This document shows, one piece after another, positions 9,454-28,929 of a stretch of 32,000 nucleotides of DNA; positions within the stretch are counted from its first letter, which is position 1, and the number at the start of each line of letters is the position of its first letter. The notes below the pieces were generated by a model. It was given only the letters and a program-made list of their open reading frames with translations. It was not told the DNA's origin and did not search any database. This DNA is from Rhodobacter capsulatus SB 1003 (GTDB lineage: Bacteria; Pseudomonadota; Alphaproteobacteria; Rhodobacterales; Rhodobacteraceae): assembly GCF_000021865.1 (NCBI RefSeq), contig NC_014035.1:90001-122000 (forward strand), read 5' to 3'. Both the position numbers and the translations under genes were made by a program.

Positions 9454-9496
9454 CGGAAACGGACCCCCGCAGCAGAAAGGAGCACGAAAGCAACCC

Positions 9497-9550: not shown

Positions 9551-9676
9551 ACCTTCAGATGTATCAGCTTCTCCGCCGCAGTCAACAGCAACCGATTCGG
9601 TTGTCGGGTTCTTTTTGCCTTGCGCAAGGGATGATGGCCAAAGGGCTCTTGCAGCCCGGTTTGCCGTGAAAAACGC

Positions 9677-10797: not shown

Positions 10798-10923
10798 GGA
10801 TCGGCGGGAAGGGCAGGGGGCCGCCCGGCCGGATCACCTGGCGAAAAGCCGCGGGGCTTTGGAAACTTAACAGCTTGTTCAACTATCGCGCGCATTCTGA
10901 CCCCCTGCATCGAGGAGTGGCAG

Positions 10924-12741: not shown

Positions 12742-12763
12742 CTTTCGTCCTTTCACGCAAGAG

Positions 12764-13383: not shown

Positions 13384-13405
13384 CGCAGGGGTCCTTCGGA
13401 GGGGG

Positions 13406-13999: not shown

Positions 14000-14757
14000 G
14001 TCATCCGCTCCACATAGGACCGCAGCGCCGGGCCGGGTTCATCATCGGCGACGATCCGGCCCTGATCAAAGACCAGCACGCGGTCGAAACCGGCCAGCAG
14101 CGGCAGGTCATGGGTGACGACGATCGCCGTCTGTGCCAGATCGGCGATCACCTGCCCGATCCGGCGGGCATTGCGCAGATCCAGCAGCGTCGTCGGCTCG
14201 TCGAAGACGATGCAATCGGGCGCGGTGATCAGCACGCCCGCAATCGCCAGCAGCTGTTTTTGCCCGCCCGACAGCCGATGCGCCGGGGCCTGGCGCAGAT
14301 CGGCCAGGCCGAAACGGTCAAGGATCGCGGTGACTTTCGCGGCGCGCTCCGCCGCGCCGGACTTCTGGCCCTTGAGTCCGAAGGCGATGTCTTCCTCGAC
14401 CGTGGGCAGGACGATCTGGGTATCGGGGTTCTGAAACACGAAGCCGACCTTGCGCCGTACCGCCCTGGCCTCGCGGGCGGTCTCCAGCCCGTCGATGCGC
14501 ACCGTGCCGCGGTCGGGCAGCATCAGCCCGTTCAGCAATCGCGCAAACGTGCTTTTGCCCGACCCGTTCGCGCCGACGATGCCAATGCGCCGCTCGGTCA
14601 GGGTCACGGAGATCCCGCGCAGCACGTCGCGCCCGTCAAAGCTTTGAAAAACATCGGAAATTTGTATGGTGGTGGGTGCCGCAGGCAGGGAAGGAAGGGC
14701 ACTGCCTGCGGCGCCTTGCAACCGCAAGCTGCTGGCGACAATACTTGAAACCATCAT
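13996..14757 (-). CDS. bioM: BioM, ECF transporter ATPase (A) component
   Basis: Walker A GANGSGKST, Q-loop FVFQNPDTQ, signature LSGGQKQ and Walker B IVFDEPT are present. The start is ambiguous between ATG 14757/14754 and ATG 14787. Confidence 0.88.
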   Translation of the reverse strand: MMVSSIVASSLRLQGAAGSALPSLPAAPTTIQISDVFQSFDGRDVLRGISVTLTERRIGIVGANGSGKSTFARLLNGLMLPDRGTVRIDGLETAREARAVRRKVGFVFQNPDTQIVLPTVEEDIAFGLKGQKSGAAERAAKVTAILDRFGLADLRQAPAHRLSGGQKQLLAIAGVLITAPDCIVFDEPTTLLDLRNARRIGQVIADLAQTAIVVTHDLPLLAGFDRVLVFDQGRIVADDEPGPALRSYVERMT

Positions 14758-14824
14758 CGGTTTGCCCCATTTCACTTGTGGTTGCATGGTTCTGGTCACT
14801 CGGTTGGACGTTCCGCCAAGAAAA

Positions 14825-15586
14825 TCAACCGAAGAGAGCGGCGAGGGTCATGTAACCGACCGAGGGCACCATCAGGCAGCCGAAGCCGGTGTAGAAGGTC
14901 GCCGTCAGCGCGCCATAGGGCACCAGTTTCGGATCGGTCGCGGCAAGGCCCGCGCTGACACCGCTCGTCGTGCCCATCAGACCGCCGTAAACCGCCGCCG
15001 CCGCAGGCGTCGTCAGCCCCGCGGGTTTCGCCAGAAGCGGCGTCAGGATCATCACCGCGATGGATTTCACCACACCGGCCGCCACCGAAAGCGCGATCAC
15101 CTCCGACGAGGCGCCAAGCGCAGCCCCGGTCACCGGACCGACGATGAAGGTCGTCGCCCCGCCGCCGATCGTCGCCATGTCGACCACGCTCGTATAGCCG
15201 AAGGCATAGGCCACCGCCGCGCCGATCGCGGTCGAGATGATGACCGAAATCACCAGCGCGATGCCGCCCGCCAGACCGGCTTTCTTCACCTCTTCCAGTT
15301 TCACCCCGAAGGCGGTCGAGACGATGGCGAAATCGCGCAGCATCGCGCCGCCCATCAGCCCGAAGCCCGCGAACAGCGAGACATCCGAAATGCCCTTGCT
15401 GCCGCCGGTGACCTTGCCGCCGATATAGGCCAGCACCAGCCCCGCGACGATGGCGATGGCCGAACCGTGGATGCGGTTGTTGACCAGTTTGCCGATCGCA
15501 TAGGAAATCCACATGATCACGCCGACGATGGCGAAGGCGGTGATCAGCGGCAGTTTTTCCAGCGTCCCAACAATGATGTCGAGCAT
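14825..15586 (-). CDS. madM: MadM, malonate transporter subunit
   Basis: The start is the internal MLDIIVGTLEKLPLI at 15586, one nt after the madL stop (TGAcATG). The 253-aa polytopic protein has MadM-like sequence and is paired with madL. Confidence 0.85.
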   Translation of the reverse strand: MLDIIVGTLEKLPLITAFAIVGVIMWISYAIGKLVNNRIHGSAIAIVAGLVLAYIGGKVTGGSKGISDVSLFAGFGLMGGAMLRDFAIVSTAFGVKLEEVKKAGLAGGIALVISVIISTAIGAAVAYAFGYTSVVDMATIGGGATTFIVGPVTGAALGASSEVIALSVAAGVVKSIAVMILTPLLAKPAGLTTPAAAAVYGGLMGTTSGVSAGLAATDPKLVPYGALTATFYTGFGCLMVPSVGYMTLAALFG

Positions 15587-15587
15587 G

Positions 15588-15989
15588 TCATTTTGCTCCT
15601 TGCGCAGCGCGTTTGGCCGCGTCTTCGGTTTCGGCGGTGCCACCAAGCGCCGCCAGCGGACGGATCAGCAGGAAGCCGGCAACAACCGGCAGGAAACCGG
15701 CGATGAAGGCCATGGTGCCCGCATCGAAGGCCGCAACGACGTTCTGGCTGGCCGCCATGGCGACGACGATCGGAATATACATCGCCGACCAGAATTTGAT
15801 GCCGTCCTGCGCCAGTTCCGACATCCGCTCGCGGTCGATGAACCAGCGCGAGATGACGACCAAAAGCAGCATCGCGATGCCGACGCCGCCCACGTCGGCA
15901 TCGATGCCGACCATGTGCCCGATCAACTTGCCGATGATCACGCCTGCGATCAGGCAGCCGCTCATCAGCGAGACCCCGTAAATCAACAT
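15588..15989 (-). CDS. madL: MadL, malonate transporter subunit
   Basis: A 133-aa protein with four TM segments (MLIYGVSLMSGCLIAGVIIGKLIG). It has a strong AAGGAGGA RBS and is paired with madM. Confidence 0.85.
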   Translation of the reverse strand: MLIYGVSLMSGCLIAGVIIGKLIGHMVGIDADVGGVGIAMLLLVVISRWFIDRERMSELAQDGIKFWSAMYIPIVVAMAASQNVVAAFDAGTMAFIAGFLPVVAGFLLIRPLAALGGTAETEDAAKRAAQGAK

Positions 15990-16055: not shown

Positions 16056-16265
16056 TTATTCGATGATCATGATCACCGCACCGGGTTTCAGACGGTCGCC
16101 CGGGTTGACGGCGATCGACTTCACCGTGCCGTCGATCGGCGCGGGGGTGTCGTTCTTCATCTTCATCGCCTCGACGACGGCGACGCATTGCCCCTTGGTG
16201 ACGGTGGCGCCCACCGCGACCTCGATCGAGACGATCACCGAGGGCATCTTCACTTTCACATCCAT
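16056..16265 (-). CDS. madF: MadF-like biotin carrier protein (69-aa biotinyl domain)
   Basis: It has the canonical biotinylation motif EAMKM within a lipoyl/biotinyl fold, and an AAAGGAAAAGG RBS. Confidence 0.88.
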   Translation of the reverse strand: MDVKVKMPSVIVSIEVAVGATVTKGQCVAVVEAMKMKNDTPAPIDGTVKSIAVNPGDRLKPGAVIMIIE

Positions 16266-17008
16266 TGCCTTTTCCTTTCTGGCTGTTTGATTGGGTGTTG
16301 CGGGTCGGGCCGCGCCGGGGGCGGGGCCTCGAAAAGGGAGATCAGGTGGGGGCGCTCGATCAGCTCGACGCCGGTGATGGTCTTGCCCAGCACCGAGCGC
16401 GCCCCCGACAGAAGTTCGGTCAGCTTGACGCCGATGCCGCCGGGCAGGGCGACTTCGGCATCGACCGCCAGGCCGCGCCGTTTCGCCAGCGTGGCCAGCA
16501 TCGTTGCCAGTTGTTCCAGCGCGCGCAGGCTCTCGGCGCGGACCACCAGATCAAGATCGGAGTCCGGGCGCAGATAGGGCAGGCCGGTCACCGTCTGCAG
16601 CGCGGCCGAGCCGATCAGGCCGATCTCGACCCCGGAGAGGGCGCCTGCGCGGGCGATCTCGGGCAGGGCGGGATGCAGGTTCGGGCCGAGGATCAGGGCG
16701 CGGTCCATCACCTCCCAGGGGGTGAAAAAGGCCGAAACCTGGCCGCGCCGCACCGGCACCGCGGCGCGCACCCGTTCGGCGCCGTGGCGGAACGGGAAGG
16801 AGAACCCGAGCTGGCCGCCGCCATCGGGGCAGGGGCCGGTGGGACGGCAGACGATGCCGGGGATATGCGCCTTGCTCATCGCGTCGCGCACCAGCTTGCG
16901 GGTGCCGGGGTCGCGCATCTGCTCGGGCAGCGCGTCAAGAACCGCGGCCAGGATGCCCGGGCGCGAGGCGGGCGAGACATGGGCAAGGCTGTGACGGATG
17001 CGGAACAT
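16256..17008 (-). CDS. mdcG: Malonate decarboxylase holo-ACP synthase (phosphoribosyl-dephospho-CoA transferase, MdcG-like; occupies the madK position)
   Basis: It has an MdcG-type nucleotidyltransferase motif (GLIGSAALQTVTGLPYLRPDSDLDLVV). Its ATG lies one nt after the madH stop. Confidence 0.75.
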   Translation of the reverse strand: MFRIRHSLAHVSPASRPGILAAVLDALPEQMRDPGTRKLVRDAMSKAHIPGIVCRPTGPCPDGGGQLGFSFPFRHGAERVRAAVPVRRGQVSAFFTPWEVMDRALILGPNLHPALPEIARAGALSGVEIGLIGSAALQTVTGLPYLRPDSDLDLVVRAESLRALEQLATMLATLAKRRGLAVDAEVALPGGIGVKLTELLSGARSVLGKTITGVELIERPHLISLFEAPPPARPDPQHPIKQPERKRQWM

Positions 17009-17009: not shown

Positions 17010-18095
17010 TCAGCGCCTCTTGATCCAGGCGGGGTCGGTCTTGGCGCTTTGCGCCATGTCGCGCTGCGCGGTGACCAGCGTGTCGAAAAGCACCGTCGCC
17101 TCCGGGCCTTCGATCACGATCGGCGCGGCCCGGCCAAGCGCGGGCACCAGTTCCAGCCGCGTCGCCCCGGCCCCCACCGTCAGACCCTGCGCCACCTTCA
17201 CCACCCGGCTCTTGATGCGCAGGATGGTGCGGGCGGTCTTTTCGATCACCTCGGCGGCGGTGGCGGGGGTATGGGTGACGATCACCTCGTATTCCGGATA
17301 GGTGCGGGCGCGGCGATAGGTGATGATCCGCCCCGCGCGGTCGCAGACATGCCCGGCGTCGGACACGACGAAACTGTCGCCCATCGGCAGACCGCCCACG
17401 ACCAGTTCCCGCCAGGGATCGCCCAGAGGCGAGGGGACCAGCGAAATATCGGCGCGCAGCGGGCGGCCATCCAGCACCAGCCAGCCGAATTCCTGACAGC
17501 CGTAAAGATCGTGCACGGCATAGCCAAAGGCCTCGGCCACCGGCAAAAGCTCGGCATCCAGCGGCGTTCCGGCACACAGAAGCACGCAGCCCTGCGGCAT
17601 CCGCGGCTTCAGATCCAGCCGCAGGGCCTGTTCCAGCGTCGCGCGCAGGAACGAGGATTCGCCAAGGATCAGCCGCGGCTGCTCGCGGCAGGCGGCCAGC
17701 AACAGCGCATCGCGGCTGGAGCGTTCCAGATGCGACCAGACCAGGCCGCAGCCCTCAAGCGCCTGTTTTGAAAACACATTCACCAGCGGCGGATAGGTGA
17801 CAAGCATCCGTTCGCCCGCCGGGATCTGCAGCCGCCCGAAAATCTCCCGGGCGACTGCATTGCGGTTTTCCAGCTCGGCATGGGTCACGCCGACGATGGT
17901 CTGAAAGGCCGACGATCCGGTGGTGAAGGTCAGATAGGCCAGATTGAAGGGGGTGTGGACCTCCTCGATCACATGCGCCGCGGTGGGGCCCGCGATGCCC
18001 TTGTGCGCCAGCGTGCGGCGGGGCATTTCCGCCAAAGTCGGCACCGCGCCTTGCAGGCTCAGCGCGTCTTCGAGGGCTTTGAGATCGTCTGACAT
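17010..18095 (-). CDS. madH: Adenylate-forming ligase-like protein in the madH position (putative acetate:SH-ACP ligase)
   Basis: A degenerate P-loop-like TFTTGSSAF and YGCQEFG resemble PaaK/F390-synthetase-type ligases. It sits between the carboxyltransferase and holo-ACP synthase genes, as madH does. Confidence 0.6.
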   Translation of the reverse strand: MSDDLKALEDALSLQGAVPTLAEMPRRTLAHKGIAGPTAAHVIEEVHTPFNLAYLTFTTGSSAFQTIVGVTHAELENRNAVAREIFGRLQIPAGERMLVTYPPLVNVFSKQALEGCGLVWSHLERSSRDALLLAACREQPRLILGESSFLRATLEQALRLDLKPRMPQGCVLLCAGTPLDAELLPVAEAFGYAVHDLYGCQEFGWLVLDGRPLRADISLVPSPLGDPWRELVVGGLPMGDSFVVSDAGHVCDRAGRIITYRRARTYPEYEVIVTHTPATAAEVIEKTARTILRIKSRVVKVAQGLTVGAGATRLELVPALGRAAPIVIEGPEATVLFDTLVTAQRDMAQSAKTDPAWIKRR

Positions 18096-18129: not shown

Positions 18130-19023
18130 TCAGCGGCTGGGCGCGTAGCGATCCGCCACGGCGGCGAAATCGCGGCTCATCATCTCGATGACGCGGGGAC
18201 GCTCGATCCGGCCGCCGCGGGCTTCGCCCAGCTTGCCGCGGCCCCAGGGGCCAAGATCGTCCTGCCGTCCCTCCAGCTTCGCGGCCCGGACCTCGGCGAT
18301 CCGCGCGACGATGGCGGGGCGCATGCCATCGAGCGTCTCGACCAGCGCCTCGACGCCGCCAAGCGAGTGGAAGAAGCGCGGACCGGCGGCAAAGACGGCG
18401 CTTTGCTTCGACAGGACTTCCAGCGTTTCCAGATCCTTGCGGATGATCCGCGAGACCGAGGTCAAGGGCATCACATGGATCATCGTGCCGAATTGCGCAT
18501 CGAGCGACAGGATCGCATCGGCCTGCAGCCCGTGGCACAGGAACGCCCCCGAGATCGCCCGGCCGATCACCATGGCGATGATCGGATGGCCCTTCAGCCG
18601 CGCCTCGGCCAGCGCCAGCTGATAGGCGGCGGTCGATTTGTTCATGCCGAAGATTTCCTCGACCTTGCCCGGGCCGTTGCCGGGGGTGTCGACGATCAGC
18701 ACCAGCGGCCGTTTTTCCGCCAGCGGCTTTTCGGCATCCTCGATGATCGAGGCATAGACCGCCTCGGCCATCTTGTAGCCTTCCTCCAGCCCGATGATCC
18801 CGGCGTAGACCACCGGGAATTTCTCGTTCATCGCGCCGCCATCCGAGGCGATGATCGTGCAGACCGTGCCTTGCAGCGTCGCGGTGCCGACGACCGCGCC
18901 CGGCCCGAATTCGGGATCGTCGAAGCTTTTCGCCCCCACGGTGCCCTCGGCGAAGCTGCCCGCATCGACGATCATCTCGATCGCGTCGCGGCCCCGCCCC
19001 ATCATGCTTTCCTGCATGTCCAT
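18130..19023 (-). CDS. madD: Malonate decarboxylase carboxyltransferase subunit (MadD / MdcE gamma-like)
   Basis: Carboxyltransferase-alpha-like sequence is present (LVLIVDTPGNGPGKVEE, IIAMVIGRAISGAFL). Confidence 0.85.
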   Translation of the reverse strand: MDMQESMMGRGRDAIEMIVDAGSFAEGTVGAKSFDDPEFGPGAVVGTATLQGTVCTIIASDGGAMNEKFPVVYAGIIGLEEGYKMAEAVYASIIEDAEKPLAEKRPLVLIVDTPGNGPGKVEEIFGMNKSTAAYQLALAEARLKGHPIIAMVIGRAISGAFLCHGLQADAILSLDAQFGTMIHVMPLTSVSRIIRKDLETLEVLSKQSAVFAAGPRFFHSLGGVEALVETLDGMRPAIVARIAEVRAAKLEGRQDDLGPWGRGKLGEARGGRIERPRVIEMMSRDFAAVADRYAPSR

Positions 19024-19042: not shown

Positions 19043-19999
19043 TCAGACGGCGAGACGGCGCACAGTGGCCAGAAACTCGGACAGGGGCAGGTCGATCAGC
19101 CCGTGGGCGTCAGTGTTGCCCGCCCGCGTCCAGACATCGGTCGCATCAGAGGGTTGCATCTCGGCCGCCAGCGCCACGGCGCGCAGCTGCGCCTTGACCT
19201 TGGCGGGCGAACCGATGCGGCGCATCTCCTCGAAGGCCTCGATCGAAAGCCCGGCCAGCGCCGAGACCTGCTCGCGGAAGGCCGCGACGGTGTTTTCGAC
19301 CAGGAAATTCGCATCGCCCATGATGAACTTGTGCCGCCCGCCGGTGGTGCGGTAGACAAGCGCGCGGTCAGAGGCGTCGAATTCCTCCTTGCCCATTTCC
19401 TGCTCGATCACCTCGGGGCCGGTCAGGCCAAGGCGGCCGAATTCCGACATGATGATCACGTCGGTGGCGGCGGCGACGAAGCCCATCCCGCCAAAGGCGC
19501 CGACCTTGGAGCCGATCAGCGCGATCACCGGCACCTTGCCGCGGGCCTTTTGCAGCTGGTCCATCACCTCGGCATGGGCCAGAAGCCCGGCGTTGGCCTC
19601 GTGCAGCCGCACGCCGCCGGTCTCGAAGGAAATCACCACGAGGGGCTTTTCCTCTTCGTCGAGGTCGTCGAATTGCGCCACAAGATCGTCATGGAAGTCG
19701 ATCGCCAGCTTGATCGTGTTGACCATTTTCGCGCCGCCGATCTCGCCGACCGAGCCGCCGATGAAGCGGCCTTCCTGCGAGATCACGAAAACGGGGGTGC
19801 GGCCGATCTTGCCGACGCCGGTGACGATGCCGTCGTCAAAGGCCACGGCATCGCCGAGCAGGGCCAGGTGCGGGCTGGTCACCCGGTCGAAGGGGCCGGC
19901 CAGTTCGGTGAAGCTGCCCTCGTCCACCAGACCGATGGCACGGTCGCGGGCCGAGGCTTCAAGGAAGCTGCGGGGTTGCAGGTCTGTCCAGTTGGTCAT
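19043..19999 (-). CDS. madC: Malonate decarboxylase carboxyltransferase subunit (MadC / MdcD beta-like)
   Basis: The start is the internal MTNWTDLQPRSFLEASARDR at 19999, with a GGAGAG RBS. Carboxyltransferase-beta-like sequence is present (GGSVGEIGGAKM, FETGGVRLHEANAGL). Confidence 0.85.
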   Translation of the reverse strand: MTNWTDLQPRSFLEASARDRAIGLVDEGSFTELAGPFDRVTSPHLALLGDAVAFDDGIVTGVGKIGRTPVFVISQEGRFIGGSVGEIGGAKMVNTIKLAIDFHDDLVAQFDDLDEEEKPLVVISFETGGVRLHEANAGLLAHAEVMDQLQKARGKVPVIALIGSKVGAFGGMGFVAAATDVIIMSEFGRLGLTGPEVIEQEMGKEEFDASDRALVYRTTGGRHKFIMGDANFLVENTVAAFREQVSALAGLSIEAFEEMRRIGSPAKVKAQLRAVALAAEMQPSDATDVWTRAGNTDAHGLIDLPLSEFLATVRRLAV

Positions 20000-20013
20000 C
20001 TCGTCTCTCCGCC

Positions 20014-20322
20014 TCAGGCCGCGGCCAGCGCCTGTTGCAGGCGCAACAGCACGACGGCGGGGGTGGCGTTGTTGTCGTTGATCTCGATGCGGGCGTCGCA
20101 AAGCCCGGACTCGTCGAGGAATTTCTGCAAGACGCGGGTCCAGAGCGCGTCAAAGCCGGTGACGGGGGTGACCACGGTCACCGCGACGCGGCCCGAAAGG
20201 TCTTCGGGATGCATCATGATTTCCAGATCGCTGGATCCGGTGACGCCCACATGCAGGCGGGCTTGGATCTTCGTCTTCGGCGCGGCGGCGGCCAGATCCA
20301 GGGTGAGAGTGTGCAAGGCCAT
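20014..20322 (-). CDS. madE: Malonate decarboxylase acyl carrier protein (MadE / MdcC delta)
   Basis: A 102-aa protein with the prosthetic-group serine motif VGVTGSSDLE. It lies between the alpha and beta subunit genes. Confidence 0.85.
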   Translation of the reverse strand: MALHTLTLDLAAAAPKTKIQARLHVGVTGSSDLEIMMHPEDLSGRVAVTVVTPVTGFDALWTRVLQKFLDESGLCDARIEINDNNATPAVVLLRLQQALAAA

Positions 20323-20336: not shown

Positions 20337-22010
20337 TTACCAGTTGCGGAAGCGGGCGGGCGGGTTGTAAAGGCCGCCGGACCAGGTCACGAGATCGCGC
20401 ATGCTTTTCGCGGCCAGCAGGTCGCGGTTGGCACGGGCGGGGTTGATGCCCAGATCGGAGACGGTCTTGACGATGCCCGCCTCGCGCAGGGCGCGGGTTT
20501 CTTCGGGTTTCGCGGCAAGGCCGATGTCGGTGAAGCCCGCGACGGCGCGGATGGCGGCCATGCGGGCCTCCATGTCCTTGCAGCGGTTCAGGTAGGCGAT
20601 GCCTTCCTCGGTGACGATATGGGTCAGGTCGTCGCCGTAGATCATCACCGGCGGGATCGGCAGATCGGCATCCCGCGCCAGTTTCCAGGCGTCAAGTTCG
20701 TCGACAAAGACCGGGGCACGGCCCTCGCCGAAGGTTTCAACCCCTTGCACCACAAGGCGTTTGCCGCGCGGCAGATTGCCGATGTCACGCTCGAGCGAGG
20801 GCAGTTCCTGGCCGCATTTCAGCCAGGCGTCGGTCGGGTGGCGCCGCCCCTTGGCATCGCAGCCCATGTTCGGCGCGCCGCCGAAGCCGGCCACCCGGCC
20901 CGCCGTCGCGGTCGAGGAGTTGCCGTATTTGTCGATCTGCAGCGTGCCGCCGATGAACATGTCGATGGCGTAATGCCCCGCCGTCTGGGCAAAGGCCCGG
21001 TTCGAGCGCAGCGAGCCGTCCGGCCCCACGAAGAACACGTCCGGCCGCGAGGCGACGTAATCTTCCATGCCCAACTCACCGCCGAAGCAATGGATCGTGT
21101 CGACCCAGCCTTCCTCGATCGCCGGGATCATGGTCGGATGCGGGTTCAAGATCATATGCGTGCAGCATTTGCCCTTGAGCCCCAGTTCCAGACCATAGGT
21201 CGGCAGGATCAGTTCAATGGCCGAGGTCAAAAAGCCGATGCCGTGGTTCATCGAGCTGACGCCATATTCGGCATAGATCCCCTTCAGGCACATCATCGCC
21301 AAAAGGATCTGGCTGTCGGTCACCAGCGCCGGATCGCGGGTGAAAAGCGGCTCGATGAAGAACGGCTTCGGCGATTGGATCACCGCATCCACCCAGTCGC
21401 CCGGAATATCGACGCGCGGCAGTTCGTCAACGATTTCATTGACCTGCGCGATGACGATGCCTTCGCGGAACTTTGTCGCCTCGACGATGGCGGGGGTGTC
21501 TTCGGTGTTGAAGCCGGTGTAAAGGTTGCCCTTGCGGTCAGCCTTGTAGGCGCAGACGAGCGAGACCCGCGGCGTCAGGTCCAGGAAGTAGCGGCCGAAA
21601 AGTTCCAGATAGGTGTGGATCGCGCCCAGCTCGATCTTGCCATTGGCGATGAATTTCGCCACCCGCCCGGCTTGCGGCCCGCCAAAGGCGAAGTCGAGTT
21701 TCTTGGCGATGCCGTTTTCAAAGAGATCCAGATGCGCGGGCAGCGGCACCGCCGATTGCACCATGTGCAGGTCATGGATCTTGCCGCGGTCAACCTTGTT
21801 CAGGCATTCGGCCAGGAAGTCGGCCTGTTTCTGGTTGTTGCCTTCGATGTTGATGATGTCGAAGGGGCGGATCACCGCTTCCAGAAGCGCCACCGTATCC
21901 TTGGCGAGCACTTCCTTGCCCTTGACATAGAGGGGCGCTGCCGCCTCCTTGCGCGCGGCGGTATCTTCCGCCCGCTTGCGCCAGCTGTTGCGCTTGTCTT
22001 GCTGCGTCAT
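20337..22010 (-). CDS. madA: Malonate decarboxylase alpha subunit (acetyl-S-ACP:malonate ACP transferase, MadA/MdcA)
   Basis: A 557-aa protein with MdcA-like sequence throughout and the characteristic C-terminus PPARFRNW. It has a strong GAAGGAGGAAG RBS. Confidence 0.92.
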   Translation of the reverse strand: MTQQDKRNSWRKRAEDTAARKEAAAPLYVKGKEVLAKDTVALLEAVIRPFDIINIEGNNQKQADFLAECLNKVDRGKIHDLHMVQSAVPLPAHLDLFENGIAKKLDFAFGGPQAGRVAKFIANGKIELGAIHTYLELFGRYFLDLTPRVSLVCAYKADRKGNLYTGFNTEDTPAIVEATKFREGIVIAQVNEIVDELPRVDIPGDWVDAVIQSPKPFFIEPLFTRDPALVTDSQILLAMMCLKGIYAEYGVSSMNHGIGFLTSAIELILPTYGLELGLKGKCCTHMILNPHPTMIPAIEEGWVDTIHCFGGELGMEDYVASRPDVFFVGPDGSLRSNRAFAQTAGHYAIDMFIGGTLQIDKYGNSSTATAGRVAGFGGAPNMGCDAKGRRHPTDAWLKCGQELPSLERDIGNLPRGKRLVVQGVETFGEGRAPVFVDELDAWKLARDADLPIPPVMIYGDDLTHIVTEEGIAYLNRCKDMEARMAAIRAVAGFTDIGLAAKPEETRALREAGIVKTVSDLGINPARANRDLLAAKSMRDLVTWSGGLYNPPARFRNW

Positions 22011-22040: not shown

Positions 22041-22871
22041 TCAAAGGGTTGCCTGCGTCGCGGCGAGGGGGATCTCGCCGAAGATGACGCTGTGAAGGGT
22101 GCCGTCGGCGGTGCGCAGACAGAGCGCGCCATCCGGGCCAAGCGCCTCGGCGATGCCCTGACGGGGGGCTTGCGGGGCGGAAAGGGTGACGGGCTGGCCC
22201 AGCGTGCAGGAGCGCACCGACCAGGCATGCCGGGCGGGCTCGAAGCCGAGGCGTTCCCATTCGGTCAGCCGGTGGTCGAGCCGTTCGACCAGCGCCGCGA
22301 AAAGATCGAAGCGGTCGACCTTGCGGCCGGTTTCGGCGCTGATCGAGGTGGCGATGGCTTGCAGCTCCGGCGGGAAATCCGTGCGGTTCTGGGCGATGTT
22401 GATGCCGATGCCCGCGATGATGTGATCCAGATCGCCTTCGGGGGTCAGCACCAGTTCGCACAGGATGCCCGAAAGCTTGCGGCCCGCGACCATCAGGTCG
22501 TTCGGCCATTTGATTTGCGGCGCAAGGCCCGTGCTGCGGGTGATGGCCTCGGCCGCGGCGACGGCGATGACAAGCGTCACCTGCGCCAGATCGGCCAGAG
22601 GGCGGGAGGGACGCAGAAGCACCGAGGCGAGCAGGCTTTCCCCGGGACGCGAAACCCAGGGTCGGTCGTATTTGCCCCGTCCGGCCGTCTGATGATCGGC
22701 CAGAACGATGGTGCCCGTGGGCGCGCCCCTCCGCGCCAGACCGGCCAGGAAGCTGTTTGTGGAGGACAGAACGGGCCGGTGGTGGACCGCGCAGCCGATC
22801 CCGGTCCGACGCCGGACGGGAAGGGCAAGCGTCGGGAGGTTCGGGAGAAGATCGGGATGGTGCGCGGTCAT
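22041..22871 (-). CDS. birA: Biotin-[acetyl-CoA-carboxylase] ligase, group I (no N-terminal HTH)
   Basis: BirA motifs are present: the biotin-binding loop HQTAGRGKYDRPW and KWPNDLMVAGRKLSGILCE. It has an AGGAG RBS and is embedded between madB and madA. Confidence 0.9.
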   Translation of the reverse strand: MTAHHPDLLPNLPTLALPVRRRTGIGCAVHHRPVLSSTNSFLAGLARRGAPTGTIVLADHQTAGRGKYDRPWVSRPGESLLASVLLRPSRPLADLAQVTLVIAVAAAEAITRSTGLAPQIKWPNDLMVAGRKLSGILCELVLTPEGDLDHIIAGIGINIAQNRTDFPPELQAIATSISAETGRKVDRFDLFAALVERLDHRLTEWERLGFEPARHAWSVRSCTLGQPVTLSAPQAPRQGIAEALGPDGALCLRTADGTLHSVIFGEIPLAATQATL

Positions 22872-22906: not shown

Positions 22907-24115
22907 TCAGTTGACCAGACCGATGGTCGAGGCGAAGACACCGACGGCGATGGCCGAGACGATGACCCCGCAGATCGAGGCGCCCATGGCGAGCGGCATG
23001 ATCATGGCGTGGGGGTTGGCTTCGAAGGCTTCCTTCTGGGCGATCTTCGCGGTCGAGGGCATGCAGGAGACGCCGGCGATACCGATGACGGGGTTGTAAT
23101 TGCCCTTCGACAGTTTCCAGACCAGATAGCCGCCGCCGATGCCGCCAAGCGCCGAGACGGCCAGCGCGGTGATGCCAAGGATCAGCAGCAGCGCGACTTG
23201 CGGATCAAGCAGGGTTCCGGCTTCGCACAGCGTCCCCAGCACCAGGCCCAGAAGCAGGGTCGAGGCGTAAGTGACGGTGTTTTCAAGGAACTTCTGGTAG
23301 GGCTCGATTTCCGCTTCCTTGATCGCGACGCCGAGGAAGAACGACAGGATCAGCGGCGTGGCGACGGGCAGCAGCAGGCACAGCAGACCGGCGGCAACCA
23401 CGGTGAAGATGAATTTCGCCTGCGGCGTGACATCGGGGAAGTCGTAATCGACTTCGATGGCGCGGTGCTCTTCCTTGATCAGCCAGCGCACCAGATAGGG
23501 GTAGCCCGCATAGGTCAGCGACAGATAAAGATAGGCGATGATCGAGATCGGCACGAAGAGGTTCTTCGCCATCATCAGCGAGCCAAAGAGCACCATCGGA
23601 CCATCGGCGCCGCCGATCGTGCCCACGGCCGCGGCTTCACCGGGCGTCAGGCCGCAATAGTAACCGATCACCAGCGTCACGAAGGTGCCCAGTTCCGCGC
23701 AGACCGCGACCGCGATCGAGGCCCAGGGCCGGGCGAGGATGAAGGAAATGTCCGCCATCGTGCCGATGCCCATGAAGAGCATGCAGGCCACCAGCGAGTT
23801 GACGAAGGTGAAGTTGTAGATCGGCTGCAGGAAGTTGATCTGCATGATGTCCATGAGCGCATTCGTCTCGGATACCAGGGGCGAGATCACCAGCGTGCCG
23901 ACCTGGCCGCCTTCCAGGATCATCACGCCGGCGTTGACCGCCATCATGCCAAGGCCCATCGGCACCATGATCAGCGGTTCCAGCGTGCGCTTGAAGCCCA
24001 GATAGGCCAGCAGGAAACCAAGCCCGATGAACGCCAGACGGGCGAAGGAAATCAGCGGGTCCTGGATGAAGAGTGTCCCGATACCGGGAAAGATGTTGAA
24101 CAGGGTCTCAAGCAT
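22907..24115 (-). CDS. madB: Membrane carboxybiotin decarboxylase, Na+-translocating decarboxylase beta-subunit family (MadB/OadB/GcdB)
   Basis: A 402-aa polytopic protein with OadB-family motifs (TIGGADGP, IGIAGVSCMPSTAK, PLAMGASICG). Confidence 0.88.
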   Translation of the reverse strand: MLETLFNIFPGIGTLFIQDPLISFARLAFIGLGFLLAYLGFKRTLEPLIMVPMGLGMMAVNAGVMILEGGQVGTLVISPLVSETNALMDIMQINFLQPIYNFTFVNSLVACMLFMGIGTMADISFILARPWASIAVAVCAELGTFVTLVIGYYCGLTPGEAAAVGTIGGADGPMVLFGSLMMAKNLFVPISIIAYLYLSLTYAGYPYLVRWLIKEEHRAIEVDYDFPDVTPQAKFIFTVVAAGLLCLLLPVATPLILSFFLGVAIKEAEIEPYQKFLENTVTYASTLLLGLVLGTLCEAGTLLDPQVALLLILGITALAVSALGGIGGGYLVWKLSKGNYNPVIGIAGVSCMPSTAKIAQKEAFEANPHAMIMPLAMGASICGVIVSAIAVGVFASTIGLVN

Positions 24116-24124
24116 TTGAGCGCC

Positions 24125-24241
24125 TCAGGATGCGTTGGGAGAGGAGAGGAGTTTCGAGATGCCGACGATCACGCCGATCACCGCAAAGGAGATCGCGGCG
24201 GTGATCAGGTAGCTGAAGGCGGCATAGGTGATGATGTTCAT
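24125..24241 (-). CDS. 38-aa single-TM peptide, candidate accessory subunit of the membrane decarboxylase
   Basis: MNIITYAAFSYLITAAISFAVIGVIVGISKLLSSPNAS. A GAGG RBS lies 7 nt before its ATG, which is 7 nt after the madG stop. Its stop lies 9 nt before the madB ATG, and that gap holds a GAGG RBS. Confidence 0.5.
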   Translation of the reverse strand: MNIITYAAFSYLITAAISFAVIGVIVGISKLLSSPNAS

Positions 24242-24248
24242 GGATGCC

Positions 24249-25205
24249 TCAGGGGTTGCAGGGGGCGAAGGGCAGGGCCTCCGCGGGGAAGATCGGGGGC
24301 AGCTCGCCCCCGGAAAGCGCATCGACGCCAAGGGTCACGGCCAGAAGATCGGCCGCGCCGCCGGGGCTGATGTGTCGTTCGATGAACCGCGCATCGAGCG
24401 CGTGGATCGCCGCCAGCCCGTCGCCGGTCAGCGCGCCGCCAAGGGCGAGGATCTTGCGGGCCTCGGTCCGCATGAAGCTCAGCGCCGCGGGACCGCCGCG
24501 CCACAGCACGGTGGTGTCCTCGGTCTCGGCCATCAGCGCGATCAGCGTGTGGCACAGGCTGGTGGCCAGCGTCGCGCCGCTGGCGCGGGCGGCGCGCAGG
24601 GCGGGCAGGCCGTGGTTGCGCACGGTCGGATAGCCCGCCTCGGCCTCGCCGCGGATGCCAAGGACACCGTATTGACGAAACAGTTTCTCGCCCGCGGTTT
24701 CGGCCTCGCGGTGCAATCCGGCGCGCAATTCGCGGTCGCAGATCCCGGCGACCATCGCCGCGGCGGTGTCGAACAGCGCCGCCTCGGTCAGGTCGTCCCT
24801 GCGGGCGGCCAGCCCCGCCGCCGCCGCCAGCACGCCCGCCGAAAACAGCAGCCCGCGCTGGGTGTTGACGCCGCGCGTCGCGGCCAGAAGCCGGGCCTCG
24901 TAGATCTCGCCGATGGCGCGCACCCGGGGCAGCAGCGTCAGGGCCGGGCCGGCATGGTCAAGCCCGGCCTCCGCGCATTGGTAAAGACAGGGCGCAATCA
25001 CCGCCGAAGAGACCATGAAGGTCTGCAGGTTCATGTCCCGATGCGCGCCGTTCGAGCGCGGCGTCACCAGACCGGGTTTGGGATGGGTGGAGATTTCCAG
25101 CAGCGCCCCGGTCAGGAAAGCCGATCCGATCGACCAGGCGCTGGTTTGCGGTGACAAGGCAATGTCGCTGAACCAGTCCAGCGGCCTGCGCAACGCGTAT
25201 TTCAT
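24249..25205 (-). CDS. madG: Triphosphoribosyl-dephospho-CoA synthase (MadG / MdcB / CitG family)
   Basis: CitG-family motifs are present (THPKPGLVTP, ISPGGAADLLA). The ATG at 25205 (MKYALRRPL) is preferred over the TTG at 25223. Confidence 0.88.
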   Translation of the reverse strand: MKYALRRPLDWFSDIALSPQTSAWSIGSAFLTGALLEISTHPKPGLVTPRSNGAHRDMNLQTFMVSSAVIAPCLYQCAEAGLDHAGPALTLLPRVRAIGEIYEARLLAATRGVNTQRGLLFSAGVLAAAAGLAARRDDLTEAALFDTAAAMVAGICDRELRAGLHREAETAGEKLFRQYGVLGIRGEAEAGYPTVRNHGLPALRAARASGATLATSLCHTLIALMAETEDTTVLWRGGPAALSFMRTEARKILALGGALTGDGLAAIHALDARFIERHISPGGAADLLAVTLGVDALSGGELPPIFPAEALPFAPCNP

Positions 25206-25567
25206 GGGTTTCGTCCCGCGCAACTGACGGCAGCGCGGCGCTTCGTGAACGCCAGGCGTTCCACGGCCAATGCAGGGATTACCTCTGGTCGGGGAAACCG
25301 TCAGACATGCGCCACACCGATGTCACTTGCTCACGCGGCGCTTTGGGTTCGTCAGCCGTCGCAGCCCCACGCGGGCAGACGGCTCATCACGGGATCACGG
25401 CCCTGTCGGGCAGCTTCGCCTCACGTCCTTGTGATCGTTCGTGATCCGAAGCATGGCAGCATCGTTACGCCTGTCGCCCGGGCTTGTCCAGAAATCGTTT
25501 TCAGGGCGCAAGAGGCTGCGTCAAAGCGCCGCAGTTTTGCAGCTATTCATGGCAAAATCAATGACTT

Positions 25568-25583
25568 GGCAAAAATGGAGCCA
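25568..25583 (-). promoter_or_regulatory. Sigma-54-like -24/-12 element facing madG
   Basis: The minus strand reads TGGCTCCATTTTTGCC, which has the exact GG-N10-GC spacing of TGGCAC-N5-TTGC. It lies about 360 nt upstream of the madG ATG. No enhancer-binding protein gene is present in the window. Confidence 0.35.
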
Positions 25584-25650
25584 GCTTTGCAACAGCGGCG
25601 CGCGGGAATTGGCCCGCGGCTTGCGGCTCGCGTTTTCGTCAACGGCGACA

Positions 25651-25689
25651 GGCGATTGCGGCGCGGCGGCAGGCCGGGCGGCAATCGCC
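25651..25689. repeat. 9-bp perfect inverted repeat GGCGATTGC-N21-GCAATCGCC (extendable with mismatches)
   Basis: It lies 17 nt after the hutP-like stop and about 110 bp upstream of the predicted sigma-54-type start. It could be an activator UAS or an RNA hairpin ending the hutP-like transcript. No U-tract follows. Confidence 0.4.
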
Positions 25690-25705
25690 ATGCAGCCATG
25701 GAAGT

Positions 25706-26122
25706 CTAGATATGCATCACCCCGAAGCCGATGCGTTCGTGGTTCGTCGTGGGATGAAAGGCCGATTCGCCATGCGCGGCGACGGCGACCCAGTGCCCGT
25801 CCGAGACCAGCGCCACCTTGAGCTTGAGGTTCGATTCCGCCACCACCGTCGCCGAGACCCCCTGCAGGCATTCCAGCCCGGCGTGAATCACCCCGTGCAC
25901 GGCGCCCGGGCGGTTGTGGATCACCCCGCCGTTCAGCGCACAGGCGACGATCGACTTGACGAAGCCCTTTTCGATTTCGGACCGCCGCCCGGTGACATAG
26001 GTGATCCCCACCTTCCAGGTCGGATGGGCCAGGATCTGCTCCTTGATCAGGTCTTCCTCTTCGCGGCTGCTGATGGCGGCCATGATGGCGGCCTTGCCGA
26101 TTCTGTCTGCTGTGACTTGCAT
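25706..26122 (-). CDS. HutP-family protein (putative ligand-dependent RNA-binding antiterminator)
   Basis: This 138-aa protein aligns by eye with B. subtilis HutP. AVHGVIHAGLECLQGV matches ALYHATMEALHGV, WVAVAAHGE matches WIAVSLYGT, and the C-terminus IGFGVMHI matches TFGVGINHI. The HxxxH pair and the C-terminal His are retained. Confidence 0.7.
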   Translation of the reverse strand: MQVTADRIGKAAIMAAISSREEEDLIKEQILAHPTWKVGITYVTGRRSEIEKGFVKSIVACALNGGVIHNRPGAVHGVIHAGLECLQGVSATVVAESNLKLKVALVSDGHWVAVAAHGESAFHPTTNHERIGFGVMHI

Positions 26123-26227
26123 GTTCGTTCCGATCCGACCCGTTTCACCGCGTTCATAGCGGCGCGACAGGGGCGGCTCAATCGCGATGATCGCGGCCCG
26201 CGCGGCGGCGCGGTGAAAGCCGCCCCG

Positions 26228-27466
26228 TCAGCCGTCGGGATCCGCCTTCACGAAGCGGCTCATGGCGCTGCCGATGTCTTCGGACAGCCGCAGGATGGTC
26301 TCCAGCCGGGCCTTGATCTCGGCGTGAAACAGATCGAGCTGATCGATCGTCGAGACCAGACCGGCGCCGTTTTCGCGCAACCGGCCGCATTCGACGCGCC
26401 CCATCACCCGGATCGTGTCCAGACCCAGCATCAGCCGCCGGATCTCCGCGCTGGATCGGGCCAGCTCCTCGGCATGGCCGACCGCAGTCGTCAGCGCGGC
26501 ATGGCTGTCGCGCCGGGTGGCGCCGCGTGCCTCGGCCAGTTTCGCGGCCTCGGTCTGCCAGTCCAGCCCGGGAACCGGCTCGGCCTGCCGGAAGGTCGCG
26601 ATCATTTCCGCCATCACCCGATTGGCCCCCAGCAGGAAAAGCGCCCGCGCCACCTCGCGCGAGACGCGGTCGCACAGATTCTCCCGGCCGCTGACGAAAC
26701 TGCGCAGCCGGTCCGAGATCACCAGGCTCGAGGCGCGGTAATTCTCGGAGATCGCCGAAACCGGCCCGCCCGAGGGTTCCAGCCGCGAGGCGACAAGGCG
26801 CATGTTGTTCGGGATCGACTGCAGCGATTCGAAACTGCGCAACAGCTTCTTCTGTTCCTGCGTCACCCGTTCGAGGGCCTCGTTCATCTCGATCAGCCGC
26901 CGGGTGCGCGGGTCTTCCGGGCGGCCAAGCCGATGGTCGCGCGCGGCCAGTTCCTGCCCCAAAGCGCTGGCCATGAAGGTGGTGTAGCTGGTGAATCCCG
27001 CCTCGGTGATGATCGTCCAGAGCCTGCGCGCGCTGTCGCCGGGATCCAGTCGCTCGGCGCGTTCGCGGGCCGCAAGCTCGGCATAGACCTTGCGGATCTG
27101 CGCGAAAAGCGGCGTCGAGGGCTTGAGACGGACCGACAGGAACCCGCCCTCGGTGGGCAGGATCACCGCGAAGACCCAGTAGAAATCGCCATTGCGGGCG
27201 CGGTTCTTGACATAGCCGCCCATCGGAAAGCCGTTGCCAAGCGCATCCCACAGGATGCGAAACACCGCACGGGGGGTGTCGGGGTGGCGGATGATCTTGT
27301 GCGGCGCGCCCAGAAGCTCTGACCAGGCGAAGCCGGAGACATTCTGGAAGACATCGTTGCCTGCCAGAATGACCCCGCGCGGATCGGTCCGCGAAAAGAA
27401 AAGATCGTCGAGTCGAAAATTGACCTCGCCCTCGGGCTGGCCGGAGAGATCGCGCTGATGAGTCAT
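26228..27466 (-). CDS. Soluble PAS-domain sensor with a degenerate MCP-signalling-like coiled-coil C-terminus
   Basis: The N-terminal PAS domain reads FFSRTDPRGVILAGNDVFQNVSGFAWSELLGAPHKIIRHPDTP and GDFYWVFAVILP. The C-terminal helical region (IPNNMRLVASRLEPSGGPVSAISENYR) distantly resembles the MCP hairpin tip. No TM segments are present. Confidence 0.6.
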   Translation of the reverse strand: MTHQRDLSGQPEGEVNFRLDDLFFSRTDPRGVILAGNDVFQNVSGFAWSELLGAPHKIIRHPDTPRAVFRILWDALGNGFPMGGYVKNRARNGDFYWVFAVILPTEGGFLSVRLKPSTPLFAQIRKVYAELAARERAERLDPGDSARRLWTIITEAGFTSYTTFMASALGQELAARDHRLGRPEDPRTRRLIEMNEALERVTQEQKKLLRSFESLQSIPNNMRLVASRLEPSGGPVSAISENYRASSLVISDRLRSFVSGRENLCDRVSREVARALFLLGANRVMAEMIATFRQAEPVPGLDWQTEAAKLAEARGATRRDSHAALTTAVGHAEELARSSAEIRRLMLGLDTIRVMGRVECGRLRENGAGLVSTIDQLDLFHAEIKARLETILRLSEDIGSAMSRFVKADPDG

Positions 27467-27564
27467 GAGCTTTCTCGCTGAAATTTTCGCAAGCTTATCG
27501 TCAGCGGTCTTAACGGCTGATTTACGGCGGCTGAAAAAATCGCTTTGCCGGGGTAGGGGGGCGA

Positions 27565-28929
27565 TCAGGCGATCCCGGCCAGATGCGCCAGAACGCCAAG
27601 ACCGGCCGACCCGGCCAGCACCGCCGCCATGCCCCAGCCGCGCCGGAACAGCGCCCAGACCGCGACGGCGGCAATTCCGGTTGCGGGCAGATCAAGCGTG
27701 GCCATCTGCGGCAGATCAAGGCTGACCGGCCCAAGGCTGATCCGCGTGACCCCGCGCCAGAGCAGATGCAGCGCAAACCACAGCGCCAGATTGGCGATCA
27801 CCCCCACCACCGCCGCGGTGACCGCCGAAAGCGCCGCGCCAAGGGCACGGTTGGCGCGCAGCCGCTCGATGAAAGGCGCCCCAAGGAAAATCCAGGCAAA
27901 ACAGGGGGCAAAGGTGACCCAGCTGGCCAGAAGCCCGCCCAGACTGCCCGCCAGCAGCGGCGCCTCCCAGCCCGCGGCGCGAAAGGCCGCCATGAAGCCG
28001 ACGAATTGCAGCACCATGATCAGCGGCCCGGGCGTCGTTTCCGCCATGCCCAGCCCGTCCAGCATCTCGGTCGGCCGCAGCCAGCCGAAATCGGTCACCG
28101 CCGCCTGCGCCACCCAGGCCAGCACCGCATAGGCGCCGCCAAAGGTCAGCACGGCAAGTTTCGAAAAGAAAAGCGCGATCGCGGTGAAGACACTCTCGGG
28201 TGCAAGCAGCCAAAGCGCCGCCACCGGCAGCAGCCACAGCATCAGCGCCACGGCGCCCGCCCTCAGCGCGGCGCGGCGCTCGGCTCCGGTCGGGTCGCCG
28301 TGCTCCTCGCCCAGAAGCGTTTCGGCATCGGGGGTCGCAGGGCCGCCCGCCGCGCCATGCCCGCCGGGCGCAAAGGCCGCGGGCGCGATCAGGCCGCCAA
28401 GCACGCCGATCAGCGCCGCCGCCGCCACGATCAGCGGGAACGGCAGGGCCAATGCGAAAAGCCCGACAAAGGCCGCCACCGCCAGCGCCCGTTGCGCCCG
28501 GGTTTTCAGCGCGCGTTTCGCCAGCCGCAGCACCGCCTGCGCGACGATCGCCAGCACCCCGGCCTTGAGCCCGAAGAAAAGGCCCGCGACCAGCCCGCCC
28601 CCGCCCCAAAGCGCATAGATCCAGCTGAGCGTCATCAGCGCGGCCACACCGGGCGCGAGGAACAAAAGCCCCGCCAGAACCGCGCCGCGCACCCCATGCA
28701 GCAGCCAGCCGACATAGGTGGCCAGCTGCATCGCCTCGGGACCGGGCAAGAGCATGCAGAAGTTCAGCGCATGCAGGAAACGGGCGTCGCCGAGCCAGCG
28801 TTTTTCCTCGACAAGGATGCGGTGCATCACCGCGATCTGCCCCGCCGGTCCGCCAAAGGACAGGCCCGCGATCCGCGCCCAGACGCGCGCGGCTTCGCCC
28901 AGACCGGGCCTTTCGATGCTGCCGCTCAT
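27565..28929 (-). CDS. chrA: Chromate efflux transporter ChrA (CHR family, two-domain)
   Basis: The N-terminus has FGGPAGQIAVMHRILVEEKRWL and the second half repeats it as FGGAYAVLAWV. The protein is 454 aa and polytopic. Confidence 0.88.
   Translation of the reverse strand: MSGSIERPGLGEAARVWARIAGLSFGGPAGQIAVMHRILVEEKRWLGDARFLHALNFCMLLPGPEAMQLATYVGWLLHGVRGAVLAGLLFLAPGVAALMTLSWIYALWGGGGLVAGLFFGLKAGVLAIVAQAVLRLAKRALKTRAQRALAVAAFVGLFALALPFPLIVAAAALIGVLGGLIAPAAFAPGGHGAAGGPATPDAETLLGEEHGDPTGAERRAALRAGAVALMLWLLPVAALWLLAPESVFTAIALFFSKLAVLTFGGAYAVLAWVAQAAVTDFGWLRPTEMLDGLGMAETTPGPLIMVLQFVGFMAAFRAAGWEAPLLAGSLGGLLASWVTFAPCFAWIFLGAPFIERLRANRALGAALSAVTAAVVGVIANLALWFALHLLWRGVTRISLGPVSLDLPQMATLDLPATGIAAVAVWALFRRGWGMAAVLAGSAGLGVLAHLAGIA

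Follow-up and report, generated by a model that had tools for sequence, protein, structure and literature searches.

The stretch considered here, 32,000 nucleotides (nt) of Rhodobacter capsulatus SB 1003 (NC_014035.1, positions 90,001 to 122,000; hereafter the window), carries at 25706-26122 a gene for a protein of 138 amino acids (aa), starting with ATG, which is related to the antiterminator HutP of Bacillus and which we call HutPL. Downstream of it, in the same orientation, is a complete Malonomonas-type operon for a biotin-dependent, Na+-pumping malonate decarboxylase, in the order madG-B-birA-A-E-C-D-H-K-F-L-M-bioMNY. Positions are those of the window, and HutPL, the mad operon and all the elements between them are on the minus strand. 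A preliminary description of this DNA had placed a co-oriented malonate operon here without a LysR or GntR regulator, and both points hold: the mad genes, except that at the madH position, are recognised by Pfam or, for madF, by an EAMKM motif, no LysR or GntR regulator was found in or beside the operon, and the window showed a single classical regulator, of AraC type, whose gene (5947-6906) lies beyond repABC. What, then, controls the mad genes? Comparison of sequences suggests that HutPL belongs to an undescribed branch of the HutP family, which lies beside malonate genes in many phyla and is accompanied by a candidate mRNA signal of GUGA type. The open reading frame (ORF) has a GC content at third codon positions of 0.86, as in other genes of the replicon, and its N-terminus agrees with those of its homologues.

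HutPL is a genuine member of the HutP family. The Pfam hidden Markov model HutP (PF09021) matches it with an E-value of 1.1e-34 and 119.8 bits (cut-off 25) over profile positions 1-128 of 128, which agrees with the full-length likeness to HutP that had been seen by eye. Credible matches in a sequence search of the PDB were HutP chains only (4ok9, 1vea and 1wmq). An AlphaFold2 model of the monomer, built on 52 homologues, has a predicted local distance difference test score (pLDDT) of 91.3 and a predicted template-modelling score (pTM) of 0.87, and when it was compared with the PDB by Foldseek, the top 11 matches were all HutP (E 3.5e-9 to 3.7e-7; template-modelling (TM) scores 0.71-0.80). The HutP fold is an antiparallel sheet of four strands packed with helices. 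By analogy with HutP, a homohexamer with two RNA-binding faces, HutPL is probably hexameric. Its closest relatives are in Rhodobacter capsulatus strains (98% aa identity). At E <=1e-10 the family falls into 485 clusters when grouped at 90% identity and has 63 representatives when grouped at 50%; it is small but broad, and its members extend beyond the Firmicutes and beyond histidine utilisation, the context in which the preliminary description had set HutP.

What has been kept, and what has been changed, in the pocket and the RNA-binding surface of HutP? HutP residues are numbered as in 1vea in the alignment of the PDB sequence search. In HutP, His73, His77 and His138 are reportedly the ligands of the divalent metal, Arg88, Tyr69, Arg98 and Glu81 the contacts to L-histidine, and Thr56, Thr99 and Glu137 those to RNA (Kumarevel et al. 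2005). The HxxxH pair of HutPL, correctly pointed out before in the sequence VHGVIH, consists of H76 and H80, aligned with His73 and His77. The terminal MHI, which had been proposed to supply the third metal-binding histidine, does not do so in this alignment: its H137 corresponds to His147 of HutP, and the place of His138 is taken by H128, inside the invariant motif TNHER (LEHET in HutP). H76, H80 and H128 are invariant in the 52 homologues and across 79 translated loci, and the metal-binding triad, with H128 as its third member, is by this alignment kept in HutPL. The other contacts have mostly been replaced. Arg88 becomes Ala91 in a variable stretch, Tyr69 falls into a gap, and Arg98 becomes Lys100 (Ala or Met in Firmicute members), so that Glu81, as Glu84, is the sole one of these contacts to L-histidine that is kept. 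On the RNA side, Glu137 is replaced by an invariant Asn127, Thr99 falls into a gap, and the position of Thr56 is likewise not conserved. Changes at the contacts both to L-histidine and to RNA would accord with another effector and another RNA motif.

A survey of gene neighbourhoods, with one genome scanned per species, gave 80 loci (that of Malonomonas rubra itself is not among them), which were classified by tblastn, with the proteins of the window and of a spirochaete locus, and by Pfam. At about 60 of the 79 related loci the HutPL homologue adjoins malonate genes, and these belong to two non-homologous pathways. The larger group, 45 loci, has an acyl carrier protein (ACP)/biotin mad cluster as in the window and covers Alphaproteobacteria, Desulfovibrionaceae, Gilliamella, Negativicutes (Phascolarctobacterium), Clostridia and Peptococcaceae; the HutPL gene is found there in four kinds of position, namely upstream and co-oriented, divergent, at the far end (as in Rhodopseudomonas palustris BisB18), and between madB/birA and madA. 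About 18 loci have a route through a family III coenzyme A (CoA)-transferase, with the transferase gene at or near that of HutPL. One of them, L036, continues from the CoA-transferase to MadL, MadM, a 516-aa carboxyltransferase, OAD gamma, a biotin carrier and OAD beta, which by its gene content is a route of malonate uptake, CoA-transfer and decarboxylation of malonyl-CoA. Sporomusa malonica, an organism that grows by decarboxylating malonate (PMC8085960), belongs to this group. In five loci an OAD_beta gene lies directly downstream of HutPL, and one of the five, that of Halothermothrix (L067), also has a CoA-transferase. Malonate-linked HutPL is found in Spirochaetes as well. Other contexts are a V-type ATPase operon in three loci of Bacteroidales (L027, L029 and L031; at about 8400-12750 in L031), CapB/CapC genes for poly-gamma-glutamate in two of spirochaetes (L037 and L043), and a gene for a four-domain multi-rhodanese protein in one of Desulfosporosinus (L068); the remainder of the 80 loci are unresolved or truncated. 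In a distance tree malonate contexts occur in both the Firmicute and the Gram-negative branches, with HutP of B. subtilis as a distant outgroup. The survey shows that the association of HutPL with malonate genes is ancient and widespread, and the presence of two non-homologous malonate-activating systems, together with the varied position of the gene, points to a regulator acting at the level of the substrate rather than to an enzyme subunit.

One contig of a metagenome-assembled genome of Breoghania (CAXXGA010000002) carries two HutPL paralogues (L012 and L047), 62% and 44% identical to the protein of the window, and each of them adjoins its own set of mad genes.

When the intergenic sequence downstream of HutPL was read across the loci, a repeat of the form GTGA-N4-GTGA was noticed. 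Its units, in RNA GUGA, GUGU or GUGG and sometimes GGGA or GAGA, are 8 nt apart. On the sense strand there are 47 matches to GTGA-N4-GTGA in the 4.2% of the sequence that flanks HutPL, and the other 95.8% has 20 with both strands counted, a 53-fold enrichment beside HutPL; TAG-N4-TAG, the canonical HutP site, is merely 2.6-fold enriched near HutPL genes and has zero occurrences in the whole window. The preliminary description is thus confirmed in that the canonical site is absent, and also in its expectation of a different RNA target, for which GUGA-type units at 8-nt spacing are now a candidate. In dereplicated loci the distances from GTG to GTG peak sharply at 8 nt only (5.4-fold), with a weaker increase at 16-17 nt. 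The repeats are always on the sense strand of the regulated genes, and in divergent loci this is the mad strand and not that of HutPL, which speaks for a signal in RNA and not in DNA. At least 10 separate lineages show the pattern, and the repeat accompanies HutPL also in non-malonate contexts and distant phyla, with flanking non-coding GUG repeats at the loci of the V-type ATPase (L027/L029/L031), CapB/CapC (L037/L043) and rhodanese (L068).

Where do these repeats lie? HutPL is followed in Firmicutes, Spirochaetes and Gilliamella by an intrinsic terminator, whose 5' arm the units enter in 8-nt register, as in Sporomusa (GUGAAUGA GGGACAGA GUGG) and in Thermoanaerobacteraceae (GUGAUUGA GUGAUAGA GUCG). 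Phased GUG units are found around the 5' arm of 17 of the 35 terminator-like hairpins just after HutPL, and around 19 of 877 other such hairpins of the same loci, which served as control (odds ratio 43). Where HutPL lies inside the operon, a terminator with the repeat in front of it stands between HutPL and madA. GUG repeats also overlap the ribosome-binding site of HutPL itself in loci of Thermoanaerobacter, spirochaetes and Bacteroidales, which suggests autoregulation. In three Thermoanaerobacter loci (L050, L054 and L055; 7941-7965) the sequence GUGAGAGA GUGAAAGA GUGAGAAAGG AUG directly follows a good promoter and covers the HutPL ribosome-binding site, an arrangement that suggests translational autoregulation.

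In Rhodobacter the arrangement between HutPL and madG looks as follows. Just after the stop codon of HutPL the sequence contains a GC-rich hairpin, GGCGATTGC...GCAATCGCC (25651-25689), which has an equivalent at the same place in loci L001-L009 and is followed in L006 and L007, where it is a canonical terminator, by a T-run; this hairpin is likely to be the end of the HutPL transcript. Then come two AT-richer blocks, GTTGCAAAG ... TGAATAGCTGCAAAA (25535-25593), conserved among the Rhodobacter loci, in which the second block reads TGAATA(A/G)(A/C)TGCAAA; the intergenic sequence around them is not conserved. Possibly they are a protein-binding or upstream promoter (UP) region, at which a DNA-binding factor would provide a second layer of control. 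They are followed by a promoter-like element, TGGACA (25485-25490), 17 nt and TAACGAT (25461-25467), whose CTGGAC core recurs in each of the 17 co-oriented alphaproteobacterial loci inspected and is invariant in alignment A2. A consensus scan of 24900-26600 for promoters and terminators gave no sigma-70 call and no minus-strand terminator, and TGGACA-N17-TAACGAT is a putative mad promoter. A sigma-54 promoter at about 25565-25582 (TGGCTCCATTTTTGCC) had also been considered and was dropped, since conservation of the block does not extend through L001-L005 and the neighbourhood encodes no enhancer-binding protein. From here a leader of about 250 nt (25206-25455, from A2) runs up to madG, with 78% mean column identity across Rhodobacter species; the spacer upstream of it is poorly conserved. 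Because HutPL has its own hairpin, after which come the promoter-like element and this leader, it looks like a separate transcription unit in Rhodobacter and not the first cistron of the mad operon. The idea that HutPL heads the operon, with which the preliminary description began, therefore seems not to apply to this genus. An Rfam scan of 24000-27600 at E up to 1 gave no match.

Two candidate sites for HutPL can be pointed out in the leader. Site I (25383-25398), GTGATCCC GTGATGAG (GUGAUCCC GUGAUGAG), has two GUGA units at 8-nt spacing, forms the invariant block CCGTGAT.CCGTGATGAGCC of A2, and has the consensus GUGAUnnnGUGAUCAG in common with leaders of Breoghania, Afifella and Roseospira. 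Upstream of it, GGATCACGAACGATCAC (25431-25447) contains two AUCAC blocks complementary to site I, with which it is predicted to pair in the minimum-free-energy fold of the single sequence. Site II (25309-25341) is a hairpin, GCGCC[GC GUGAGCAA GUGACAUCG GUGU]GGCGC, which displays three GUG units in its loop. Alignment A4 contains 19 site II sequences of different genera, some of them collected through a search for stems. In it the stem of 5 bp is 94.7% paired and two of its five pairs covary, and none of 500 shuffles was as good. A covariance model of the site (R1) matches mad leaders only in 1.09 Mb searched on both strands, and three of its matches are outside the training set. One of these three is a second copy in locus L042, about 540 nt upstream of madL.

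In the same locus (L042 coordinates 10878-10910 and 11335-11385) the second hairpin copy lies downstream of a promoter-like element, TTGACT-N17-TACTGT, and a perfect inverted repeat of about 15 nt, AATAGTAATCATAGA ttt TCTATGATTACTATT, which is possibly an operator, lies just upstream of madL.

The 3' domain of the Rhodobacter leader can be closed, just before the ribosome-binding region of madG, by a helix of CUGACGG (25298-25304) with CCGUCAG (25224-25230), which is 98.6% paired with one compensatory change. For the whole Rhodobacter leader, RNAalifold pairs CCGUCAGUUGCGCGG with site II instead (columns 285-310), without compensatory changes. This long-range pairing, which excludes the CUGACGG/CCGUCAG helix, can be taken as an alternative conformer.

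On these grounds we consider it probable that HutPL is a ligand-gated RNA-binding regulator of the mad genes, with the HutP fold and a new RNA specificity. It would work as follows. Each subunit would recognise one GUGA-type unit, as HutP does one NAG, with two or three successive units held by one face of the oligomer. Such binding would, in Firmicutes, Spirochaetes and Gilliamella, block formation of the terminator between HutPL and the malonate genes, which is classical antitermination. In Rhodobacter HutPL would be transcribed alone, and the mad mRNA would carry a leader with site I and with site II displayed on a hairpin. There, site II and CUGACGG would compete for CCGUCAG by the ribosome-binding region of madG, and binding of HutPL would most likely switch between these alternative pairings and so affect either initiation of madG translation or Rho-dependent termination. 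This switch of pairings, which we infer from the leader, is the weakest step of the model. As to the effector, the most speculative part, malonate together with a divalent metal at the histidine triad might replace the L-histidine and Mg2+ of HutP; a dicarboxylate could chelate the triad-bound metal as L-histidine does in HutP with its amino-carboxylate. The two types of pathway share only the substrate and its carrier, which makes malonate the obvious candidate for the malonate-linked members; it is a guess from gene context, to which we would give slightly less than an even chance. The whole could then be an old class of malonate RNA switches that crosses phyla, in which a HutP-type hexamer with a malonate-metal chelate at its triad and a GUGA code of 8-nt spacing acts by antitermination in Firmicutes and Spirochaetes and, independently of a terminator, by remodelling of a structured leader (translation or Rho) in Alphaproteobacteria, is retargeted to V-type ATPase, poly-gamma-glutamate and rhodanese genes, and is the regulator present as MadZ/MadY in Malonomonas. 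All of this together is doubtful, and we put it forward tentatively.

Several points weigh against the regulatory model. The evidence for HutPL as a regulator is entirely computational. The loci are phylogenetically related, by which binomial P-values for the repeat are inflated, and within the window alone there are two matches to the motif where 0.58 are expected, a number reached by 15 of 100 shuffles and not significant. The collection of part of A4 by searching for stems is a selection bias. The single-sequence fold of the leader is no more stable than those of shuffled sequences (z -1.35). Control through translation or Rho has as its basis two short helices, each showing a single compensatory change, in one genus. 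No hairpin followed by a U-tract, as in an intrinsic terminator, was found on the minus strand in 25206-25705, and since the leader has no recognisable intrinsic terminator, the antitermination supposed for Firmicutes is not simply transferable to Rhodobacter. With regard to the effector, residues separating the malonate-linked from the other HutPL proteins were sought and none was convincing, and the homologues that head the V-type ATPase, CapB/CapC and rhodanese operons are about 47-48% identical to the protein of the window. With such close relatives beside these genes, malonate cannot be the effector for the whole clade.

This last point leads to the best of the other explanations, that HutPL is indeed an RNA regulator of mad through the GUGA repeats and that its effector is not malonate: the metal alone, another metabolite (acetate, a CoA or ACP thioester, Na+ status), or none, in plain autoregulation at a fixed level. 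The three types of operon just mentioned (L027/L029/L031, L037/L043 and L068) speak for it, as do the lack of an evident pocket signature that separates the groups, the metal triad as the only universally conserved feature of the pocket, the GUG repeats over HutPL's own ribosome-binding site, and the coupling to Na+ that is common among the systems under its control (OAD_beta pumps, MadLM and V-ATPase). It has to be set against these that malonate catabolism is the dominant and apparently ancestral context, in which two enzymologies share only the substrate and MadLM, and that the precedent of HutP is a substrate plus a metal. We regard a different effector as unlikely on balance.

Might HutPL, with its HutP fold reused, be instead an accessory, assembly or metal-handling part of the Na+-pumping decarboxylase? 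Its gene is inside the operon between madB/birA and madA in Negativicutes and Clostridia and directly 5' of an OAD_beta gene in Thermoanaerobacter, and the histidine triad is conserved. However, HutPL also accompanies operons without any decarboxylase, those of V-ATPase, CapBC and rhodanese; the phased GUG repeats on the sense strand, with terminators or leaders, always flank it and would be needless for a structural subunit; and the in-operon gene is parted from madA by repeat and terminator exactly as hutP is from hutH. A role of this kind is very improbable. We hold it to be just as improbable that the repeats and the leader have nothing to do with HutPL and are a protein-independent riboswitch or DNA operators for another factor. 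In favour of this explanation, the Rhodobacter leader is long, structured and highly conserved, and the tie between protein and leader is indirect. Against it, HutPL is accompanied by the repeat in at least five phyla and at unrelated target operons, and the rest of the leader changes wholly, from terminators in Firmicutes to the display on a hairpin in Alphaproteobacteria. A DNA operator is made less likely by the flanking matches, all of which are on the sense strand; the leader has no match in Rfam; and short units at fixed spacing typify oligomeric RNA-binding proteins (HutP, TRAP; PMC2425495), not known riboswitches. That HutPL is simply the orthologue of Bacillus HutP and controls histidine utilisation, as database names of its homologues such as 'Hut operon positive regulatory protein' would have it (others are 'HutP family protein' and 'transcriptional regulator'), has a negligible chance and is effectively refuted by a score of 31.2 bits with the NCBIfam HutP equivalog NF002838 (cut-off 155) and an identity of 23-26%, by the absence of UAG-N4-UAG from the window, by the loss of Arg88 and Tyr69, and by the absence of hut genes from the window and the 80 loci in the searches made.

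The regulatory model is best compared with HutP itself (Bacillus subtilis/Geobacillus; PF09021), with which HutPL shares the fold (TM 0.71-0.80), a similar size, HxxxH with a third histidine, and a target of short units at fixed spacing on single-stranded RNA. The hut operon has the order hutP-terminator-hutHUIGM (PMC12591593), and in Firmicutes and Spirochaetes the HutPL loci likewise have the regulator gene, then a site overlapping a terminator, then catabolic genes. The target of HutP is two clusters of three UAG/NAG motifs with 4-nt spacers in terminator RNA (PMC2425495, PMC12591593), and its unit is thus UAG/NAG at 7-nt spacing (UAGNNNNUAG; UAGNNNNUAGNNNNUAG; PMC2425495), whereas the units proposed for HutPL are of GUGA type at 8 nt. 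HutP differs further as a hexamer of the hut operon activated by L-histidine and Mg2+: HutPL is linked to malonate genes, its clade is present in Gram-negative phyla, and in Rhodobacter it seems to be a separate unit whose mad leader has no U-tract terminator. TRAP of Bacillus is a ligand-activated 11-mer ring of unrelated fold that reads GAG/UAG triplets with spacers of 2-3 nt. HutPL would resemble it as a ligand-activated oligomer on many short repeats of a leader, acting on the choice between terminator and antiterminator and on translation; TRAP promotes termination rather than preventing it, and no similarity in sequence or structure between it and HutPL was found here. The malonate regulators MdcR (LysR type, Klebsiella), MdcY and MatR (GntR type, Acinetobacter and Rhizobium) also control malonate catabolic operons in response to malonate, but they are DNA-binding factors of the biotin-independent mdc and mat systems, and HutPL would act on RNA. 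The mad cluster of Malonomonas rubra (Berg, Hilbi and Dimroth 1997, cited in PMC8085960) reportedly has the order madYZGBAECDHKFLMN, which the order G-B-A-E-C-D-H-K-F-L-M in the window matches, with birA and bioMNY added. HutPL lies just upstream of madG, presumably where M. rubra has madZ or madY, which we take to be genes without known function, and MadZ or MadY may be a protein of HutPL type.

HutP has been regarded as a speciality of a single Bacillus operon, and a review of 2025 on RNA-binding antiterminators names it for hut alone (PMC12591593). In the literature searched we found no paper that links the HutP family to malonate or describes members outside hut, and no regulator described for the biotin-dependent mad system. 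The present comparison suggests that the HutP fold is a reusable ligand-gated RNA-binding module with at least one further major role, in the control of malonate catabolism from Clostridia to purple bacteria, and with a second RNA code, GUGA units at 8-nt spacing. HutPL is also a rare candidate for a protein-mediated catabolic switch at the RNA level in Alphaproteobacteria. If the model is true, it names the missing regulator of the biotin-dependent mad system and offers a compact malonate-responsive pair of protein and RNA, usable as a biosensor part. It is directly testable with one protein and one RNA of 250 nt.

The operon itself begins with madG (24249-25205; CitG family, triphosphoribosyl-dephospho-CoA synthase; PF01874, E 3e-77), whose start is most likely the ATG at 25205 rather than the TTG at 25223 of the mechanical ORF call, because ATGAAATACGC is conserved in all Rhodobacter loci (A2). 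Between madG and madB is a small ORF (24125-24331 as listed), which probably encodes about 40 aa from MNIITYAAF... with a single transmembrane helix. It has no Pfam match, adjoins madB in most mad loci (tblastn), has a similar peptide 5' of OAD_beta elsewhere, and may be an OAD-gamma-like subunit. Next are madB (22907-24115; OAD_beta, the Na+-pumping decarboxylase subunit; PF03977, E 2e-105) and, inside the operon, a birA-like gene for biotin protein ligase (22041-22871; PF03099 and PF02237). Pfam then identifies madA (20337-22010), madE for ACP (20014-20322) and the carboxyltransferase genes madC (19043-20101) and madD (18130-19023); the gene at the madH position (17010-18095; 361 aa) has no Pfam match. 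After mdcG/madK (16256-17008; Pfam) come madF (16056-16265) for the biotin carrier of 69 aa, with the EAMKM motif, and, again recognised by Pfam, madL (15588-15989), madM (14825-15646) and bioM/bioN/bioY for an energy-coupling factor (ECF) biotin transporter (12814-14799). With its own birA and bioMNY the operon seems self-sufficient for biotinylating MadF. A gene for an SBF-like Na+-coupled transporter (11785-12756) lies after bioMNY.

About 2 kb past the end of the mad/bio operon are the repABC genes (7139-10780), consisting of repA (ParA-like; 7139-8476), repB (8476-9453) and repC (9677-10780), which place the malonate cluster on a plasmid or chromid. The region had no match in PLSDB by megablast; for homologues in Cereibacter sphaeroides and Azospirillum humicireducens the annotation likewise gives a plasmid location.

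Directly upstream of HutPL, a gene on the minus strand (26228-27466) encodes a 412-aa protein with an N-terminal PAS_3 domain and otherwise no Pfam match. The gene ends in a strong hairpin, GGGGCGGC...GCCGCCCC, and the protein is kept only in the closest strain (L001). In Sporomusa malonica the genes upstream of HutPL are those for a PocR-MCP signalling protein and CheW.

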